Virus record (IMG/VR): IMGVR_UViG_3300044476_000120
Location: 1-55,944 of that record
Source of the DNA: a virus
Taxonomy: Duplodnaviria > Caudoviricetes
Strand: one strand, 5' to 3'
Length of the DNA stretch: 55,944 bases
Positions 29,162 to 39,504 of the stretch are shown here, in pieces. The first letter of the stretch is position 1; each line of letters begins with the position of its first letter. The notes beneath the pieces are model-generated. The model saw only the letters and a program-made list of their open reading frames with translations, was not told the origin of the DNA and did no database searches. Made by a program: the position numbers and the translations under genes.

Positions 29162-29755
29162 ATGTACCACGAGCGGCACAACCCGCTGGACGACCCGCTG
29201 CCGAAGGCCGCGACTGCCACAGCCTCCGTCAATGAGCAGGGGTCCAACCTCTGCTGGTGCGGCGGTGTCGTCCAGCACCTGGACACGCCGGTCTGCACGG
29301 AGAGCGTGCTCCACGACCCCTACGCCACCGGGCGCCCGGAGAAGATCACGAAGTTGTACATCGCCGGCCCGATGACCGGGTACCCGAAGTGCAACTATCC
29401 GGCGTTCGACGAGGCCGAGGTCGCTCTCGTGGCGATGGGGTACGAGGTCGTCAACCCGGCATCGTTCGGGTCTGGGGGAGGCCACTACATCGACCTCCTC
29501 CGCGACGACCTCCGCGCCATGCTCGACTGTCACGCGGTGGCGACGCTCGAGGGTTGGTGGGAGTCCGGTGGTGCCCGCAACGAGGTCCACGTCGCTGGCC
29601 TCCTCAAGATGCCGGTCCGTACCGCCCAGGAGTGGATCATCCGATCCGACGTCTACCGCAACGCCAAGATGGACGCGCTGCGGGCCGCCGCCGGAGTGAC
29701 CTGCAGCCCGCACAAACCCAACCCCAGAAGGAGGGCCCCCCGTGGCGACCAGTAG
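29162..29755 (+). CDS. DUF4406 / nucleoside 2-deoxyribosyltransferase-like protein
   Basis: LYIAGPMTG..NYPAF, VVNPA, L.GW..S.GA..E. Confidence 0.85.
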   Translation: MYHERHNPLDDPLPKAATATASVNEQGSNLCWCGGVVQHLDTPVCTESVLHDPYATGRPEKITKLYIAGPMTGYPKCNYPAFDEAEVALVAMGYEVVNPASFGSGGGHYIDLLRDDLRAMLDCHAVATLEGWWESGGARNEVHVAGLLKMPVRTAQEWIIRSDVYRNAKMDALRAAAGVTCSPHKPNPRRRAPRGDQ

Positions 29756-33731: not shown

Positions 33732-33986
33732 ATGCAGATCACAGTCACGACCTCCAGCGGGGAGACGCACGAGTGGGACGGCGCGCTCGACGCGCTCGAC
33801 GACTGCGGATCGCTCGTCGTCATCTACCCGCTGGGGGAGGGAGAGTCCGGCGACGGGCTCAAGACTCTGACACTGCGGAGCCAGGTTGACCAGGGGCCCG
33901 ACCGGGCTCCCCTCGACGTGTCGTCGCTGGCCCGTGTGGCAGCCGTCTACGCTCCGGGCATGTGGGTCTGGACGGAGTACGCATGA
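33732..33986 (+). CDS. Hypothetical protein
   Basis: Coupled to the next gene by ATGA. Confidence 0.7.
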   Translation: MQITVTTSSGETHEWDGALDALDDCGSLVVIYPLGEGESGDGLKTLTLRSQVDQGPDRAPLDVSSLARVAAVYAPGMWVWTEYA

Positions 33987-34882
33987 ACCGCTGGCCGCTG
34001 TCCAACCTCGACCCGGACGCCGCGATGGACTTCCTCGGATACGTCGAGGAACGCCACCGGGTGTGGACGGCGCGCCAGGTCGGGGCACCCCAGCCGTGGA
34101 CGGATGACCCGATCATCGCCAGCCGGAAGTTCACCAACGTGTTCCGCCTGCTCGACCCGGGGTCGCAGTTCGTGATCACGGACCTGTTCGACGAGTACCT
34201 CGAAGCCCAGGACTACCTCATGCGGTGCTTCCTGTACCGGCACACCAACCTCCCCCGGGCATGGCGCGCCTTCCGTGCTGAGGCCGGGCGATACCCGCTC
34301 ATCGAGGACCTCCCCCGGGTGCGCGCCTTCTGGCATGACTACCGGGCCCGGGGCGAGCGCGTCTTCTCCGGTGCCTACATGATATATCCGCAGTCGTCCA
34401 CCCCGGGTACCGACAAGGTCGACGCCATCCTCGACCTCACGACTCGACTGTTCGTCGACGGCGTGGTCGCCCATGAGTTCGTCAGCGCCGGTTCGTGGGA
34501 GGGAGCCTTCCAATCTCTCCGGCGCAACAAGGGCGTCGCGGACTTCATGTCGATGCAGATACTGACGGACTTCGGCTACGGGACTGACTTCCACGAGAAC
34601 GACTTCGTCGTCCCCGGACCGGGGGCCCGCAAGGGTGCATCGTACCTTGGAGTGAGCGCGGAAACGGCGATCGAGTGGGGGTTCTCGGTCCTCGCGGAGG
34701 TCCCGAACCCCCCAGTGATCTTCGGGAAGCACCGCCCGTCTCGCATGGACGTCCAGAACTGCCTCTGCGAGTTCTCCAAGTACGCCCGGTATCAGAGCAA
34801 GCCATCGAAGCAGGCGCCGTACACCCCGGCGAACCTCGGGGTACAGTTGGCTCCGAAACAACCCCCGTTCTGGAACATCTAG
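33983..34882 (+). CDS. 5-hydroxymethyluridine DNA kinase (5-HMUDK; aGPT-Pplase1 family)
   Basis: ERH...PWTDDPI...KFTNVFR..D; FSGAY; GPGA..G; D.QNCLCEFSKY. Confidence 0.85.
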   Translation: MNRWPLSNLDPDAAMDFLGYVEERHRVWTARQVGAPQPWTDDPIIASRKFTNVFRLLDPGSQFVITDLFDEYLEAQDYLMRCFLYRHTNLPRAWRAFRAEAGRYPLIEDLPRVRAFWHDYRARGERVFSGAYMIYPQSSTPGTDKVDAILDLTTRLFVDGVVAHEFVSAGSWEGAFQSLRRNKGVADFMSMQILTDFGYGTDFHENDFVVPGPGARKGASYLGVSAETAIEWGFSVLAEVPNPPVIFGKHRPSRMDVQNCLCEFSKYARYQSKPSKQAPYTPANLGVQLAPKQPPFWNI

Positions 34883-34907
34883 GAACCGAACAACGAAGGG
34901 AACCGCT

Positions 34908-36443
34908 GTGTACCACAACTACATCTTCGACAGCGTCAACGACGCCCTGCCCGCCCTCCTCATGGACCTCCGGAAGAAGGGCGAGCACATCTCGTCCCGC
35001 GCTGGCGGCACCCATGAGTTGATGCACGTCGGCACCACGCTGACCACCCCGCTCTTCCGGGAGATCCTCGTCCCCGGGCGCAAGGCCTCGGTCGCCGCGC
35101 AGATCGCGGAGACGGCCTGGATCCTCGCCGGGCGGTCGGACATCGACTGGCTGGTCAACTACTTGCCCCGAGCCAGGGAGTTCTCGGACGACGGCCAGGG
35201 CTGGCGCGCCGGGTACGGGCAGCGGCTCCGGGCGTGGCCCCGGCGCGACGGAAGCGGCGACACGATCGACCAGTACCGTTGGGTCGTCGACCACCTGAAG
35301 CAGAAGCCCTCGTCCCGGCAGGCCGTCATGTCCATCTGGGACCCGGCGGTGGACACGACCCCGGGCAAGGACATCCCGTGCAACGACTGGCTGTCGTTCT
35401 CGTCCCGGCTCGGACGGCTCGACCTCCACGTCGCGGTCCGCTCCAACGACATCATCTGGGGCTGGTCGGGAATCAACCAGTTCGAGTGGTCGACGCTCCT
35501 GGAGGTCACCGCTGGCCTCTTGGGCGTCGGGGTCGGCTCTCTGCACTTCTCGACGACCTCGCTGCACCTGTACGACCACCACCTGAACCGGGCCCAGGAG
35601 ATCGCTGACTCGATGTCCTACGACTTCCGCTTCGGCAAGACGTCGCCCCGGTTCGATCCGGAGGCTCTGGAGTCTCGGGACGTCGATGGTCTCGATGCTC
35701 TGCTCGACGCCTGGTTCGCGCTGGAGGCCGGGATCCGGCTCGGTGCTGACTGCGACCGGGCGGTGGACCAGTTCCCCGAGCCCATGCTGCGCTCCTGGCT
35801 CCGTGTACTGCAGTGGTGGTGGACCGGCGACCGGGACTACCTCCAGCCCATCGAGGGCACCAACCTGGCGCTGGCCACCGAGGTCGGGGTCCAGCCCCCA
35901 GCGCGGGAGAACCCGCTCCCGATCGAGACGTCGGCGCCCACCGCCATCACGGAGGTCATGAGCGACTTCCTGGCCCACGCGATCAACATCCACGACGCCA
36001 AGTCGCTGGCCTACGGCAACTCCTGGAAGCGCCGTGGCGAGACCATCGGGATCATGGCGAACATCGCCCGGAAGGTGGACCGGCTCGGCGGTGCGGAGAC
36101 GGCGGACGAGACGTCCGCGGACACCGCGCTGGACCTGATGGTCTACCTGGCCAAGTACCTCTGCTGGATCTACGAGCAGCGCGGGTCCCTCCCCTCTGGG
36201 GCATCCGACAGCACGGACTTCGCCAACAACATCCTCAAGGCCGTCGAGAGCCACGACCTGGACCAGGAGCGCTACCGGGGCAACTACGAACTGGAGACCT
36301 ACCTGCGCAACTCGTTCGACGATCTGTCCGAGGTCGTCCAGTCGGACTTCGTCGACAGCCCGCTCAACCGCCGGGAGCCTCTGGTCCGGTCCATGCTCCG
36401 AGCCTCCTACGTGCTGGCTCGCAGGCTCTACGAGGCGTCATGA
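34908..36443 (+). CDS. Thymidylate-synthase-family dUMP hydroxymethylase with C-terminal Nmad1/DUF1599-like domain
   Basis: SRQAV, DIPCN, RSND..WG..N (Asn = dUMP type), SLHLY; C-terminal K..AYGNSWKRRG...RKVDRL. Confidence 0.85.
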   Translation: MYHNYIFDSVNDALPALLMDLRKKGEHISSRAGGTHELMHVGTTLTTPLFREILVPGRKASVAAQIAETAWILAGRSDIDWLVNYLPRAREFSDDGQGWRAGYGQRLRAWPRRDGSGDTIDQYRWVVDHLKQKPSSRQAVMSIWDPAVDTTPGKDIPCNDWLSFSSRLGRLDLHVAVRSNDIIWGWSGINQFEWSTLLEVTAGLLGVGVGSLHFSTTSLHLYDHHLNRAQEIADSMSYDFRFGKTSPRFDPEALESRDVDGLDALLDAWFALEAGIRLGADCDRAVDQFPEPMLRSWLRVLQWWWTGDRDYLQPIEGTNLALATEVGVQPPARENPLPIETSAPTAITEVMSDFLAHAINIHDAKSLAYGNSWKRRGETIGIMANIARKVDRLGGAETADETSADTALDLMVYLAKYLCWIYEQRGSLPSGASDSTDFANNILKAVESHDLDQERYRGNYELETYLRNSFDDLSEVVQSDFVDSPLNRREPLVRSMLRASYVLARRLYEAS

Positions 36444-37504
36444 CACAACTGGACTGGCGCCTGCCGGAGAACCGGAGAGAGGGCTTCCAGCGCTTCTACA
36501 CCCACAGCCTGTCCCACCTGTCCTTCCCGGGGATGGTGTACTCGATGTTGCCGGCGATCGCGGACGCCTTCCGTCTGGACGAGGATGGCCGCGCCTGGCT
36601 CGCCTGGCTGAACGGCAACACCCAGAACGTGGTCACGTCGACCCTCCTGCTGGAGGCCGCGCCGCGACCCCAGGACTGGAAGGATGCCGTCAACTTCTGG
36701 AACGAGCACTTCAAGGCGCTGGAGTGGGACACCGACCGGCGCCACCAGAAGTCGAAGTTCGGCGTGGCGACCGAGCAGTGGTTCCTGGACTACGGATACC
36801 GGCCAGCGGCGGACTGGGAGAAGGTCGGCGCCCGGGGCTGGGAGCACACCTGGAAGCACGCCAAAGACCAGCCCTACATGGGCCGTCTCTCGGCCTGGTC
36901 AATGCTCGAGTTCGCACGGATCCTGCTCGGCGCGGACGTCGTGCCGGACATGGGGACGTGGCTGCTAGACGACGTCTCCGGCTCCCGGTCTCACCGCAAC
37001 GGACTGGCCGTCATCGCCGGGCACGACGCCTGGTCTTGGCCAGCCGAGGCCCCGTCCATGCTCGGCATCGTCCCGGACCTTGAAGCGCTGGCGGACGACC
37101 TGCTGGCAGAGGCCAGGGACCGCAACCCCGACGACCCCATCGTGTCTCATCTGACTATCGAGTCGGCGCTGTGCACGTACAAGTCGCACTACAAGGAGAA
37201 CCGTCGCTACCCCAACGTCTACGCCGACATGATGTACAACCGGATCCGCAAGGCGGAGGTCCGGTTCGGGCGTCGGCTCGAGTTGATGTGGGACATCCGC
37301 CAGCGCACCCTCCCGGACTACCTCCGGCTGGAGGACAACCCGCGCGACCCCGGGCTCGCCCCGGTGAAGCAGAACCACTTCCGGGAGACCGGGGAGTTCA
37401 TCTTCCTCCACCGCGAGTGGCTGGACACGGAGCCGAGCACGTTCGATCTCGATCTCGAGGCCGGGCGCTTCCCAGTACGGAAGGACCCGTCGTGGGCACT
37501 GTGA
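36440..37504 (+). CDS. Amino acid:DNA transferase (AADT; aGPT-Pplase2 family)
   Basis: DWRLPENRRE.F, WDTDRR..K, GRLSAW..LE, GSRSHRNGL, ESALCTYK, RRYPNVY.DM. Confidence 0.85.
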   Translation: MTQLDWRLPENRREGFQRFYTHSLSHLSFPGMVYSMLPAIADAFRLDEDGRAWLAWLNGNTQNVVTSTLLLEAAPRPQDWKDAVNFWNEHFKALEWDTDRRHQKSKFGVATEQWFLDYGYRPAADWEKVGARGWEHTWKHAKDQPYMGRLSAWSMLEFARILLGADVVPDMGTWLLDDVSGSRSHRNGLAVIAGHDAWSWPAEAPSMLGIVPDLEALADDLLAEARDRNPDDPIVSHLTIESALCTYKSHYKENRRYPNVYADMMYNRIRKAEVRFGRRLELMWDIRQRTLPDYLRLEDNPRDPGLAPVKQNHFRETGEFIFLHREWLDTEPSTFDLDLEAGRFPVRKDPSWAL

Positions 37505-38379
37505 TCTCTGACCCCTACGCGCTCACCCCGTGGGAGGAGCGCAACGGAATCTGGTACAAGCGAGAGGACTACCATCGCAACGCCTACGGCGTGAACGGGG
37601 CCAAGTACCGAGCCTGTGGCCACCTGATCGGGAAGGCCGTCGTAGAGCAGGGAGTCGACTGGGTCGTGTCGGCGCAGTCAGTCCACTCGCCGCAGGCCGC
37701 CATCGCCGCGACGCTGGCCGAGCAGATGGGCCTCGGGTGCACGATCGTCATCGGGGCGAGCAAACCCGAGACCGCCGTGAAGCACCGCTCGATCGACATC
37801 GCGGTCCGGGCCGGTGCCATGCTCGACACGTCCTGCCGAGTGGCCTACAACGGCGTGATCCAGCCGCACGCTCAGAGGCTTGCGGAGGCCCTGGGCGCGT
37901 ATCAGGTGCCCTACGCCATCAGCCTGCCCGCCGACGCCTCCTCTCGGGATGCTCGGGACTTCCTCGACGTGGGCGGGAGCCAGGCCCGGGGCGTACCGGA
38001 GTCGGTAGAGACCCTGGTGCTGACATTCGGCTCTGGCAACACAACAGCCGGGGTGCTCTACGGCCTGTCCAGGTACGCGGAGCATCTCCCGTCTCGGGTC
38101 GTCCTCGTGGGGGTCGGGCCGGACCGCACGCAGTACCTCTGGGACCAGTTGGAGAAGGCTGGCGCAGCGGAGATCCGGCACCAGGTTGAGATCGTGCACA
38201 TGCCGCTCCAGGGATGGTTCGTCGAGTACGCCGACCTGATGCCCGAGACGCTGGACGACATCGTCATGCACCCCCGGTACGAGGGCAAGGTCGTCCGCTT
38301 CCTCAACACCGCGCAGCCCGACTGGTGGACCGTCCGGGACGGGTCCGTCGGCTTCTGGATCGTGGGTGGCCCGCTGTGA
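37501..38379 (+). CDS. PLP-dependent enzyme (fold type II), putative DNA-base decarboxylase
   Basis: LTP, KRED, NGAK.R, SPQ, GSGN, HPRYEGK, FWIVG. Confidence 0.82.
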   Translation: MISDPYALTPWEERNGIWYKREDYHRNAYGVNGAKYRACGHLIGKAVVEQGVDWVVSAQSVHSPQAAIAATLAEQMGLGCTIVIGASKPETAVKHRSIDIAVRAGAMLDTSCRVAYNGVIQPHAQRLAEALGAYQVPYAISLPADASSRDARDFLDVGGSQARGVPESVETLVLTFGSGNTTAGVLYGLSRYAEHLPSRVVLVGVGPDRTQYLWDQLEKAGAAEIRHQVEIVHMPLQGWFVEYADLMPETLDDIVMHPRYEGKVVRFLNTAQPDWWTVRDGSVGFWIVGGPL

Positions 38380-39050
38380 CCGCATCCGTCTACGTCATCG
38401 GTGGCGCCGGTACCGGCAAGTCCACCTTCATGGCAGCGCTCCTGGGCCCCCGGGCAGCCGCTCTCGGGCCGCTCGAGGACCTCCACGCCAAGCCCAACAC
38501 AAAGTCACTGGTGACCCTGCGAGGGCACCGTCTCGGCACGGATGGGATGTACCTGGGGTGCATGCGGGACGAGTACCCGGGCACCGACGGCCTGGACCGG
38601 GCGTCGTCCCCCGTGGGCAAGGAGTGGCTAGAGCAGGGAGGGCTCCGGGGCATCGCCTGGTTGGTCGGAGAGGGAGCCACGCTGGCCACCCGACCTTTCA
38701 TGCACGCGCTGGCGGAACACAGCAGCCTACTGCTCATCCATCTGTTCGCCGACGACTTCGTCAAGGACCTCCGGTTCGTCGAGCGCGGATCGTCTCAGGC
38801 GGACTCCTTCGTGACGGCAACCGCGACCCGATCACGCAACCTGGCGCTCGAGATGGCCACGGTCCGGGCCCGGGTCTGGGACGTCGACAGCGCTGACCCG
38901 GAGGAGTGGACGCAGGCTCTCGACGTTGCGACGGACCACCTTGGGAAACTCTTTCAAGAAAGCTGGTCCGGGCGCGGCAACGACAGCAAGCGGTCCGAGC
39001 AGGACGCCGTCCGTGGGTGGGCGCAGGACCAGGCCCAGCGCCTCTTCTGA
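38376..39050 (+). CDS. P-loop nucleotide kinase (putative 5-hmdUMP kinase)
   Basis: GGAGTGKST, GTDGL, GEG; cluster context. Confidence 0.78.
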   Translation: MTASVYVIGGAGTGKSTFMAALLGPRAAALGPLEDLHAKPNTKSLVTLRGHRLGTDGMYLGCMRDEYPGTDGLDRASSPVGKEWLEQGGLRGIAWLVGEGATLATRPFMHALAEHSSLLLIHLFADDFVKDLRFVERGSSQADSFVTATATRSRNLALEMATVRARVWDVDSADPEEWTQALDVATDHLGKLFQESWSGRGNDSKRSEQDAVRGWAQDQAQRLF

Positions 39051-39129
39051 TCCATCCATGCAGCACCCCCGGGCCGGTACCCCGGGGGTGCTACCCTTGT
39101 ACCTGACGGAACCGACAGAAGGGAACCCC

Positions 39130-39504
39130 ATGCTCGCCCGAGAGAAGTGGCAGATCAAGACCATCGACGTCCTGGAGAGGGTCTTCGAGGAGCGCAAGCG
39201 CCAGATGGCTATGTACGGCACCAACGAGGATCTCGAGGACGGGACAGGACCGTCTCGCGCCTGGCTCCTGCCGTTCACCGACGCGCCAGCGGACGAGGTG
39301 GAGAAGGGCTTCCGTCGGAACTACGAGGCGCACGAGGAGATCACCGGGAAGCCGACGTGGATGCACCTGGTCCGCGAGGAGTTGGCGGAGGCCTTCGAGA
39401 TGGACGGAGACGACCCCGAGTTCGTCACCGAGATCCTGCAGGTCGCTGCGCTCTGCGTCTCTTGGGCGGAGAAGAAGTTGCAGGACCCGGTACGAGGACG
39501 GTAA
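39130..39504 (+). CDS. MazG-like (all-alpha) NTP pyrophosphohydrolase
   Basis: ER.RQ...G, REELAEAF, EILQVAA. Confidence 0.72.
   Translation: MLAREKWQIKTIDVLERVFEERKRQMAMYGTNEDLEDGTGPSRAWLLPFTDAPADEVEKGFRRNYEAHEEITGKPTWMHLVREELAEAFEMDGDDPEFVTEILQVAALCVSWAEKKLQDPVRGR

Follow-up and report, generated by a model that had tools for sequence, protein, structure and literature searches.

Does an uncultivated, high-GC tailed phage replace the thymine of its DNA, and if so with which base and by means of which enzymes? Hypermodified thymines make DNA resistant to many restriction enzymes and harder to sequence, and the question is raised here by a complete IMG/VR virus record of 55,944 bases (IMGVR_UViG_3300044476_000120; CheckV completeness estimate 100%), which was analysed over its whole length and is referred to below as the window. 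Its plus strand carries, at positions 33983-39504, six co-oriented genes (g1 to g6) that had been read from the sequence as a thymidine hypermodification operon; we call that reading the original prediction. We find that this six-gene thymidine-hypermodification cassette is genuine. From family membership, catalytic residues, synteny and co-occurrence we infer a two-stage chemistry, and we consider it likely that this pathway gives the phage a non-canonical thymine. The type of pathway is known, and comparable gene sets have already been annotated in phages of actinobacteria (actinophages); its particular versions of the enzymes are uncharacterised.

Transferase, PLP enzyme and kinase

The gene g3 (36440..37504, plus strand) encodes a 354-residue amino-acid:DNA transferase (AADT, also known as aGPT-Pplase2; PF18724). 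It matches the family profile at 41.9 bits, against a cut-off of 26.2, over profile positions 55-228 of 232. Residues E241-S242 and Cys245 align with E243-T244 and Cys247 of phage M6 and are kept in 16 of 16 aligned sequences; this E-[ST]-x-x-C motif has been described as providing the metal ligands and the catalytic cysteine (PMC13458397 section 37). A family match above cut-off together with an intact catalytic motif upholds the AADT label that the gene had been given. Among characterised AADTs the closest is the serine transferase gp247 of phage ViI (26% identity, E 2e-20, blastp), and no blastp match at E < 0.01 was obtained to the glycine enzyme M6 gp51. Identity rises to 45% with gene 3 of 27 Mycobacterium phage records and to 57% with gp42 of Glutamicibacter phage Montesquieu.

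Because a phmmer search of PDB sequences gave no relative of g3 at E <= 1, its donor pocket was mapped through an alignment to M6 gp51, which is 97% identical to the crystallised YuA enzyme (PMC13458397 section 36); YuA numbering was assumed to be identical, and the alignment is uncertain at distant positions. The YuA pocket comprises D24, E96, K159, K248, Y257 and D262 (PMC13458397). The aligned residues are G31, D99, E157, T246, Y257 and R268 in g3 and R, D, E, W, Y and E in ViI, so that the YuA residues K159, K248 and D262, which bind glycine, correspond to E157, T246 and R268 of g3. The g3 pocket thus matches neither the glycine pattern (YuA K159, K248, Y257, D262) nor the diamine pattern (G227 and D238 of the 15599 enzyme), and has the D, E and Y in common with ViI. 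The position of Tyr257 is occupied by Tyr in YuA (Y257) and ViI gp247 and by Asp in the diamine enzyme (15599 D238; PMC13458397 section 38), which in this alignment favours an amino-acid donor. A clade of 1170 protein clusters surrounds g3 at E <= 1e-10, and the best 120 of these are all unnamed, metagenomic and at least 60% identical to it. By sequence comparison, g3 is a member of an uncharacterised AADT clade, with a pocket that matches no characterised enzyme.

Directly downstream, g4 (37501..38379, plus strand) encodes a 292-residue pyridoxal phosphate (PLP) enzyme of the PALP family, a relative of 1-aminocyclopropane-1-carboxylate (ACC) deaminase. Its PALP score of 28.8 bits falls under the cut-off of 35, as does that of the validated ViI enzyme gp226 (30.7 bits). 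Its earlier designation as a PLP enzyme is borne out by blastp homology to ViI gp226 (25% identity, E 1.5e-31) and M6 gp52 (E 1e-6) and by Lys35, which aligns with the proposed Schiff-base lysines M6 K36 and ViI K92 in 15 of 15 sequences. The best PDB match is 1j0a (E 1.9e-9), the modelling template for ViI gp226 (PMC8989533). We regard g4 as a probable decarboxylase of a DNA-tethered amino acid, the kind of substrate on which both characterised phage PLP enzymes act (PMC8989533 section 19). According to the cited parts of the same paper, the decarboxylase requires a free primary amine, and M6 needs a radical-SAM (S-adenosylmethionine) isomerase after N-linked transfer of glycine, whereas ViI, with O-linked serine, does not. 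Since no isomerase was found in the window and the PLP enzyme needs a free amine, the donor would be attached through its side chain. In Mycobacterium phages AlanGrant and Vincenzo (KR080200, KR080194, NC_028934; about 1406-2266), gene 2 encodes a protein 41% identical to g4, and these phages were not among the tblastn matches for the g3-type AADT.

The AADT reaction requires phosphorylated 5-hydroxymethyluracil (hmU) in DNA (PMC8989533; PMC13458397 section 42), and a kinase together with an AADT is sufficient for amino-acid transfer (PMC8989533). The only candidate for that kinase is g5 (38376..39050, plus strand), a 224-residue P-loop protein with the Walker A motif GGAGTGKS that matches PF18751 (Ploopntkinase3) at 40 bits, against a cut-off of 27. 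The validated kinase families are PF18748 (HMUD1; M6 gp54 and SP10 gp186) and PF18747 (HMUD2; ViI gp243); neither matched any of the six frames of the window at E <= 10, and g5 is the only six-frame match to PF18748, PF18747 or PF18751. Its role is illuminated by phages that carry a TET/JBP dioxygenase. The gene order in Mycobacterium phage Prince is ParB-like, 'thymidine hydroxylase' (TET/JBP), AADT, Ploopntkinase3 (E 6e-74) and terminase, and the order in an IMG/VR locus (L019, 6401-12849) is ParB_N, Tet_JBP, AADT, PLP enzyme, Ploopntkinase3 and terminase. A nucleotide kinase would be needless in these systems because hmU is expected to arise on the DNA through the dioxygenase, and since Ploopntkinase3 adjoins the AADT where only a DNA kinase is needed, the family is best read as a DNA kinase. 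By analogy with these contexts, g5 is a probable kinase of 5-hydroxymethyl-2'-deoxyuridine (5-hmdU) in DNA, belonging to a sister family that lies outside the two validated ones. The family call made for g5 in the original prediction, a P-loop kinase, is confirmed by PF18751 and the Walker A motif; the part of a spare kinase that it was assigned there is not, as g5 is the one candidate for the hmU-DNA kinase.

The g5 protein is some 28 residues longer than its homologues of about 195 residues (residues ~195-224; window positions 38955-39050). In three related loci (L012, L015 and L017) the tail has its match in a separate stretch downstream of g5, at a distance of between a few hundred bases and about 2 kb, which suggests a small fused or shifted open reading frame (ORF).

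A putative hydroxymethylase with a fused helical domain

The product of g2 (34908..36443, plus strand; 511 residues) consists of a thymidylate synthase (TS)-fold enzyme, residues 1 to about 330, and a fused helical domain, residues ~350-511, which are joined in the AlphaFold2 model by a low-confidence linker (335-348). The TS family PF00303 matches residues 18-232 only (85.7 bits, E 3.8e-24). The best solved relative is MilA, a CMP 5-hydroxymethylase, both by sequence (E 6.7e-24, versus 1.3e-15 for the best TS) and by score over the whole protein (87.5 bits versus 60.2 for the best TS); the N-terminal half gives 39.6 bits with MilA and at most 21.6 with any TS. The AlphaFold2 model (mean pLDDT 87.6) superimposes on MilA with a TM-score of 0.85 over 339 columns, the C-terminal helices of MilA included. 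Cys158 aligns with the nucleophile of L. casei TS and Asn190 with its Asn229, and both are invariant in 24 of 24 g2 homologues. Because MilA has Asp in place of the Asn at L. casei position 229, Asn190 points to uracil rather than cytosine as the substrate base. The tryptophans of the E. coli TS stretch IWDEW, which we take to have a role in hydride transfer, align with Ala89 and Phe92 of g2. These features agree with the label of dUMP-type hydroxymethylase that had been applied to the gene, and we call the N-terminal domain a putative dUMP 5-hydroxymethylase. The call rests mainly on genomic context and the MilA-like architecture, because the C-terminal half of the TS domain slightly favours TS.

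The fusion is conserved, in relatives of 470-593 residues that include gp41 of Brevibacterium phage LuckyBarnes and gp51 of Montesquieu, and the core of the C-terminal domain also occurs as standalone proteins of 157-203 residues. A profile of this domain matches gp189 of the Bacillus phage SP10 (L034, 5162-5611; E 5.3e-17, 53.9 bits), the product of a small gene directly after the TS-like gp188; its annotation as 'replication protein' is probably wrong. Because gp189 directly follows the TS-like gene of SP10, the linkage between hydroxymethylase and helical domain is conserved between the actinophage lineage and a Bacillus phage. The domain gave no Pfam family, no six-frame DUF1599 match and no meaningful PDB profile match, and the fold search with full-length g2 was dominated by the TS domain. 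One standalone homologue gave a sub-threshold DUF1599 (Nmad1) signal (E 0.059), and the domain is possibly DUF1599/Nmad1-like. A paralogous relationship between it and g6 was considered and rejected (hhalign probability 0.3%). A conserved acidic tail, ...[DE]-Y-[RKL]-G-A-D-x-[DE], ends seven of the eight distinct g2 homologues that were read (eight of nine loci: L007, L010 and L013-L018); the L009 homologue and g2 of the window (36400-36443) end without it.

The PF18723 protein g1

Upstream of the hydroxymethylase gene, g1 (33983..34882, plus strand) encodes a 299-residue helical protein of family PF18723 (HMUDK_hel, formerly aGPT-Pplase1; 160.5 bits, E 7.4e-47) that is 25% identical to M6 gp55 (E 2e-14, blastp). 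It had been labelled a 5-hmdU DNA kinase (5-HMUDK), a name that does not fit: g1 contains no Walker A motif and only the helical PF18723 domain. Judged by its sequence, g1 is a helical accessory protein that corresponds to M6 gp55 and ViI gp160 (the former aGPT-Pplase clade 1) and lacks a kinase domain. In the experiments cited from PMC8989533, lysates with M6 gp54 (the P-loop kinase) and gp51 (the AADT) sufficed to form Nα-glycylthymidine (Nα-GlyT), and gp55 was dispensable. The Pfam name of PF18723 probably reflects fusions like SP10 gp186, in which HMUD1 spans residues 35-193 and PF18723 residues 313-598; the kinase domain of gp186 was active by itself (PMC8989533). A predicted complex of g1 with g5, modelled on the idea of a split kinase that this fusion suggests, scored 0.01, which argues neither for nor against it.

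Members of PF18723 were found in ViI, M6, Montesquieu and LuckyBarnes, and there was no match in Prince, the only TET/JBP-type record searched. In this small sample of genomes, PF18723 accompanies the nucleotide-level route to hmU, with its hydroxymethylase, and not the kinase and AADT; its fusion to a kinase in SP10 is counter to a simple pairing with the hydroxymethylase. These comparative data bear on the role of the aGPT-Pplase1/PF18723 protein.

LuckyBarnes (NC_047851, L002; 5848-9863) retains the long hydroxymethylase, gp41, and a PF18723 protein, gp38, with two glycosyltransferases between them in the place of the AADT, PLP enzyme and kinase; Ploopntkinase3 was not found in this phage. 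The arrangement suggests a glycosylated hmU and a role of PF18723 that is independent of the kinase. Microbacterium phage Pajaza (MG944216, L033) has a PF18723 protein near a short TS-family gene, and within the 7.6 kb examined no gene was annotated as AADT-type. Altogether 42 records of small (~40 kb) Microbacterium phages encode a PF18723 protein 33-37% identical to g1, and such phages may contain hmU or another derivative. In ViI (L032, 1433-3589) the PF18723 gene gp160 adjoins a gene annotated as a MazG-like pyrophosphatase, a neighbourhood that parallels the proximity of g1 in the window to helical, possibly nucleotide-handling, domains.

The last gene and genes absent from the window

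The cassette ends with g6 (39130..39504, plus strand; alternative start 39058), a conserved 124-residue protein with an invariant E83-E84-x-x-E87 and a predicted four-helix bundle (AlphaFold2 pLDDT 93.7). None of its 272 homologues is named or has a Pfam family. The original prediction had described it as a MazG-like pyrophosphatase, and what survives of that label is a set of weak leads: a profile search of PDB sequences gave 1vmg as its best match (E 0.023), an entry that we take to be MazG-like; the third-ranked BFVD match, behind two uncharacterised phage proteins, is annotated MazG-like (E 0.044, TM 0.42); and an Atlas cluster in which 29% of the members carry MazG ranked 22 (score 0.91). 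The label is not supported by Pfam or by fold: g6 has no Pfam family, Pfam MazG matched none of the six frames of the window, the single-sequence PDB search gave no match and the best Foldseek match in the PDB had an E of 3.7. At most, g6 is possibly an all-alpha (MazG-like) nucleotide pyrophosphatase.

The reported absence of radical-SAM, flavin lyase and acetyltransferase genes holds. A six-frame scan of the window with hidden Markov models (HMMs) of Radical_SAM, Acetyltransf_1 and DAO gave no match at E <= 1, with 14 of 14 control genomes positive, and tblastn searches of the window with M6 gp53, PaMx11 gp47 and PaMx11 gp48 likewise returned nothing at E <= 1. Among 17 characterised proteins compared with the window by tblastn, only the TS-like PaMx11 gp51 gave a significant match, on g2. 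The HMM comparison that had been proposed for the aGPT-Pplase1, aGPT-Pplase2 and Ploopntkinase families is positive throughout (g1 with PF18723, g3 with PF18724, g5 with PF18751).

Organization and conservation of the cassette

Gene limits were set by periodicity and frame analysis of G+C at third codon positions (GC3) and by start-codon context, and they reproduce the previously proposed outer limits, with six genes all on the plus strand. That most of the genes overlap is also correct, with four-base overlaps at g2/g3, g3/g4 and g4/g5 and gaps only between g1 and g2 (25 bases) and between g5 and g6 (79 bases). A fourth overlap of four bases joins g1 to g0 (33732..33986, plus strand), a GC3-supported ORF of 84 residues whose stop overlaps the start of g1. 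This ORF has no Pfam or PHROG family; it lies upstream of g1 also in L010, L015 and L016 (32-42% identity, tblastn), and is possibly the first gene of the operon. The cassette has no internal promoter- or terminator-like sites above chance, which fits a single operon. A G+C-rich inverted repeat, CCCCGGG ... CCCGGGG, can be read in the g5-g6 spacer (39067..39088); no T-tract follows it, and it was not among the calls of the terminator scan.

With g3 as the query, IMG/VR yielded 17 loci. Eight of them contain all six genes (L007-L010 and L015-L018; L008 and L009, with identical statistics, are probably the same virus), and another five (L006, L011-L014) stop at a contig end but lack none of the genes for which there is room. 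The cassette is thus syntenic in 13 of 17 loci, with the diverged relatives at 41-75% identity, in the order polymerase, g0, g1, g2, g3, g4, g5, ..., g6, ..., DUF932, which is rearranged in L008 and L009. Among the 13 syntenic loci, 12 have g6 downstream of the cassette; L013, which stops just after g5, does not. What the remaining four loci (L019-L022) have in common with the window is limited to the AADT, with or without the PLP enzyme. In one of these (L020, 3472-6813; 73% G+C), an AADT 38% identical to g3 is followed by Amidoligase_2 and glutamine-amidotransferase proteins, a combination that PMC8989533, in the part cited, mentions as uncharacterised.

A proposed two-stage pathway

The first stage would take place before replication. 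The N-terminal domain of g2 would turn dUMP into 5-hydroxymethyl-dUMP, host kinases would raise this to the triphosphate, and the phage family-A DNA polymerase encoded upstream would incorporate it in place of T. The C-terminal domain of g2, g1 and g6 would probably support this stage, for example through control of the nucleotide pool or handling of hmU-DNA. The second stage would take place on the DNA, by homology to the steps reconstituted for M6 and ViI. Here g5 would phosphorylate the 5-hydroxymethyl group, giving 5-phosphomethyl-2'-deoxyuridine (5-PmdU), and g3 would then replace this phosphate by a small donor bearing an amine or a hydroxyl. The donor is most probably an amino acid joined by its side chain, which would leave the alpha-amine free. 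With this free amine g4 would form a Schiff base and remove the carboxylate. The product would be a ViI-like aminoalkyl(oxy)methyl-uracil, namely 5-(2-aminoethoxy)methyl-2'-deoxyuridine (5-NeOmdU) if serine is the donor and a related new base otherwise. The ViI-like route is the best template by analogy, because the closest characterised AADT and PLP enzyme are the ViI pair and because there is no radical-SAM gene.

In its core, this agrees with what had been proposed, that T is replaced by way of 5-hmdU and then converted to an amino-acid-derived base, an idea that homology, catalytic residues and conserved synteny support. Two details do not carry over. The step had been described as pyrophosphorylation, a term that is outdated, as a single phosphate is gained and ADP is the other product (PMC8989533 section 15). 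The product had been given as 5-NeOmdU or a new amino-acid-derived base; the amino-acid origin is retained, and 5-NeOmdU specifically is kept as a possible product only, since the g3 pocket differs from that of ViI at three of six positions.

Several observations weigh against this pathway or parts of it. The virus is known from a metagenomic contig alone. Residues 100-240 of g2 score slightly higher with L. casei TS than with MilA (51 versus 45 bits). For the kinase step, g5 has no significant blastp match to M6 gp54 or ViI gp243, and no assay of any Ploopntkinase3 protein was found in the literature. For the donor, g3 is only 26% identical to ViI gp247, from which its pocket departs as noted (G31 versus R, T246 versus W, R268 versus E), and gp3 of Prince has the same aligned pocket residues as g3. 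No PLP-enzyme gene is annotated in the first 9 kb of the Prince genome, where its other hypermodification genes lie, and the three Mycobacterium phage records that match g4 include none of the 27 in which a g3-like AADT occurs. Because Prince shares these residues without an adjacent PLP enzyme, the aligned pocket positions may not define the donor. Finally, a recognisable dTTPase, dUTPase, dCMP deaminase or HD-domain nucleotidase was not found in the window with Pfam MazG or by tblastn with M6, PaMx11 and ViI proteins; because no such nucleotide-pool enzyme was recognised, full replacement of T is not assured.

Alternative explanations

Other assignments of the same genes can be imagined. If g4 decarboxylated a free metabolite (such as ornithine, lysine or diaminobutyrate) and the AADT transferred the resulting diamine, the DNA would contain a putrescinyl-, cadaverinyl- or dapT-like base. 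Such donors have precedents in PhiW-14, whose AADT uses putrescine, and SH-Ab 15599, whose AADT uses 1,3-diaminopropane (PMC13458397); relatives of g3 such as that of Prince occur without an adjacent PLP enzyme, and the aligned g3 pocket does hold the acidic D99 and E157. We nevertheless think this order of events rather unlikely, given that both characterised PLP enzymes of the family act on amino acids already tethered to DNA (PMC8989533) and that Tyr257 of g3 is shared with YuA and ViI gp247 and replaced by Asp (D238) in the diamine enzyme 15599. The kinases might also be assigned differently, with g1 as the 5-hmdU DNA kinase and g5 as a nucleotide kinase in its own right, acting on the way from hmdUMP to the triphosphate. 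We judge this improbable. A g1 kinase would have to act with no Walker A motif, M6 gp55 was unneeded for Nα-GlyT where the P-loop protein gp54 was needed, and the kinase domain of SP10 gp186 was active alone (both PMC8989533); moreover, Ploopntkinase3 is the sole kinase family beside the AADT in Prince and L019, where no nucleotide step is expected, and Prince has no PF18723 match. The assignment draws its support from the names that Pfam gives to PF18723 ('5-hmdU DNA kinase, helical domain') and PF18751 ('nucleotide kinase'), and from the two Ploopntkinase3 paralogues of Montesquieu, one of which could serve nucleotides.

It may also be supposed that g2 is an ordinary thymidylate synthase in a phage with normal T in its DNA, the other genes being remnants or acting on another substrate. 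Retention of the TS nucleophile and Asn in g2 fits this idea, as does the marginally better score of the C-terminal half of its TS domain with TS than with MilA. Remnants are hard to reconcile with six intact, tightly packed genes that are syntenic in relatives at 41-75% identity, or with invariant catalytic residues in the AADT and PLP enzyme; MilA is by far the nearer relative of the N-terminal half of g2, and Ala89 and Phe92 stand where E. coli TS has its tryptophans. This explanation appears to us very improbable, and the two-stage route through hmU-DNA is the one that we retain.

Relation to characterised and annotated systems

The system of ViI that makes 5-NeOmdU, a nucleoside of nominal mass 301 u (PMC8989533), consists of a dUMP hydroxymethylase, the kinases gp67 and gp243, the serine AADT gp247, the PLP enzyme gp226 and the PF18723 protein gp160. 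The window has the same enzyme classes, likewise with no radical-SAM isomerase and with a separate PF18723 protein; gp247 and gp226 are the closest characterised relatives of g3 and g4, and g3 and gp247 share a C-terminal extension of about 90 residues that M6 gp51 does not have. In contrast to ViI, the identities are only 25-26%, the kinase is a Ploopntkinase3 rather than the HMUD2 protein gp243, the genes form one operon rather than being scattered over a 157-kb genome, g4 has 292 residues where gp226 has 424, and the host is probably an actinobacterium rather than a proteobacterium. M6 and YuA, which make 5-(2-aminoethyl)-2'-deoxyuridine (5-NedU), and PaMx11, which makes 5-acetylaminomethyl-2'-deoxyuridine (5-AcNmdU), follow the same logic of hydroxymethylase, PF18723 protein, P-loop DNA kinase and AADT, with the same E-[ST]-x-x-C motif and, in M6, a PLP decarboxylase with the same lysine. 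They differ from the window in their donor, an alpha-amine-linked glycine, and in the radical-SAM isomerase of M6 and the flavin lyase and acetyltransferase of PaMx11.

The closest cultured carrier, Montesquieu (OV696619; genes 39-42, 51 and 52), has every enzyme class: a PF18723 protein, a long TS/hydroxymethylase with the same C-terminal domain, the AADT (57% identity), a PLP enzyme (39%) and Ploopntkinase3 (49%). Its GenBank record already uses the names aGPT-Pplase (twice), hydroxymethylase and ACC deaminase, and labels its P-loop kinases 'ABC transporter' and 'Probable thymidylate kinase'. Unlike the window, Montesquieu has two Ploopntkinase3 paralogues rather than one, and some 3.5 kb of other genes, one of them for a ribonucleotide reductase beta subunit, interrupt its cassette; the examined part of its genome yielded no homologue of g6. 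The main text of PMC9331655, which deals with Montesquieu, does not mention thymine hypermodification. Actinophages of the TET/JBP type (Mycobacterium phages of the Zemanar/Prince type and Rhodococcus phage Tonitrus, together with the IMG/VR locus L019) share an AADT of the same clade, 45% identical and with identical aligned pocket residues, next to a Ploopntkinase3, and in L019 the PLP enzyme also. They differ in that a TET/JBP dioxygenase replaces the hydroxymethylase, hmU presumably being made on the DNA, and in the location of the genes at the genome end beside ParB and terminase. Tonitrus has been described as having a thymidine hypermodification system (PMC11955845), and SP10, which infects Bacillus, is the source of one of the assayed kinases (PMC8989533). 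The novelty first claimed for this locus, that the characterised examples of the enzyme set infect Proteobacteria, was therefore overstated in view of Montesquieu, the 27 Mycobacterium records, Tonitrus and SP10. Our literature search found no chemical characterisation of thymine hypermodification in an actinophage, only genome announcements and annotations (the cited part of PMC11955845; GenBank OV696619).

Genomic setting and probable host

The window has a G+C content of 64-68% and is laid out as a minus-strand block of structural and lysis genes flanking a plus-strand replication block. The latter encodes a VRR-NUC nuclease, a SNF2 helicase, a VapE-like primase-helicase, a DUF2800 nuclease, a DUF4406 protein, an Enc34-type single-stranded DNA-binding protein (SSB), endonuclease VII and the family-A DNA polymerase, immediately downstream of whose gene the cassette sits. 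The DUF4406 protein (29162-29755), which resembles nucleoside 2-deoxyribosyltransferases, is encoded within the replication module, has conserved counterparts in L017 and L018 and could have a role in nucleotide-pool manipulation.

The description of the virus as an apparent actinophage is supported, in that its nearest cultured relatives all infect Actinomycetota. The terminase is closest to those of Micrococcus phage Kurnik and Gordonia phages (56-58%), the polymerase, SSB and DUF932 protein to those of LuckyBarnes (49-54%), and the cassette to that of Montesquieu. By these sequence affinities, the host is probably an actinobacterium. A prophage search for the host, with g3 against 185,579 species-representative genomes, found no relatives. 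Megablast of the cassette against 50,697 phage records gave no match, and distant DNA matches appeared only with short-word blastn.

Implications for AADT diversity

Up to now, every AADT donor discovered has brought with it another natural DNA base; the donors are glycine, serine, putrescine and 1,3-diaminopropane (2026). With its relatives, the window delimits a large AADT clade that comes from metagenomes only and is paired with Ploopntkinase3, and the cultured relative Montesquieu makes the chemistry directly testable. Taken jointly, the data admit a broader reading, which we offer as a tentative one whose odds are somewhat short of even. The AADT, PLP enzyme and Ploopntkinase3 may form a portable module that stands behind either a dUMP hydroxymethylase or a TET/JBP hydroxylase, and that in a widespread, uncultivated actinophage lineage installs an undescribed thymine. 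Its donor would be an amino acid linked by the side chain, not serine but, for instance, threonine, homoserine, ornithine, lysine or diaminobutyrate, and would be decarboxylated on the DNA. The PF18723 protein, the helical domain of g2 and g6 may in turn constitute an undescribed support module for the pre-replicative route through hmdUTP. If this is true, these phages would have a new route to aminoalkoxy- or polyamine-like thymines.

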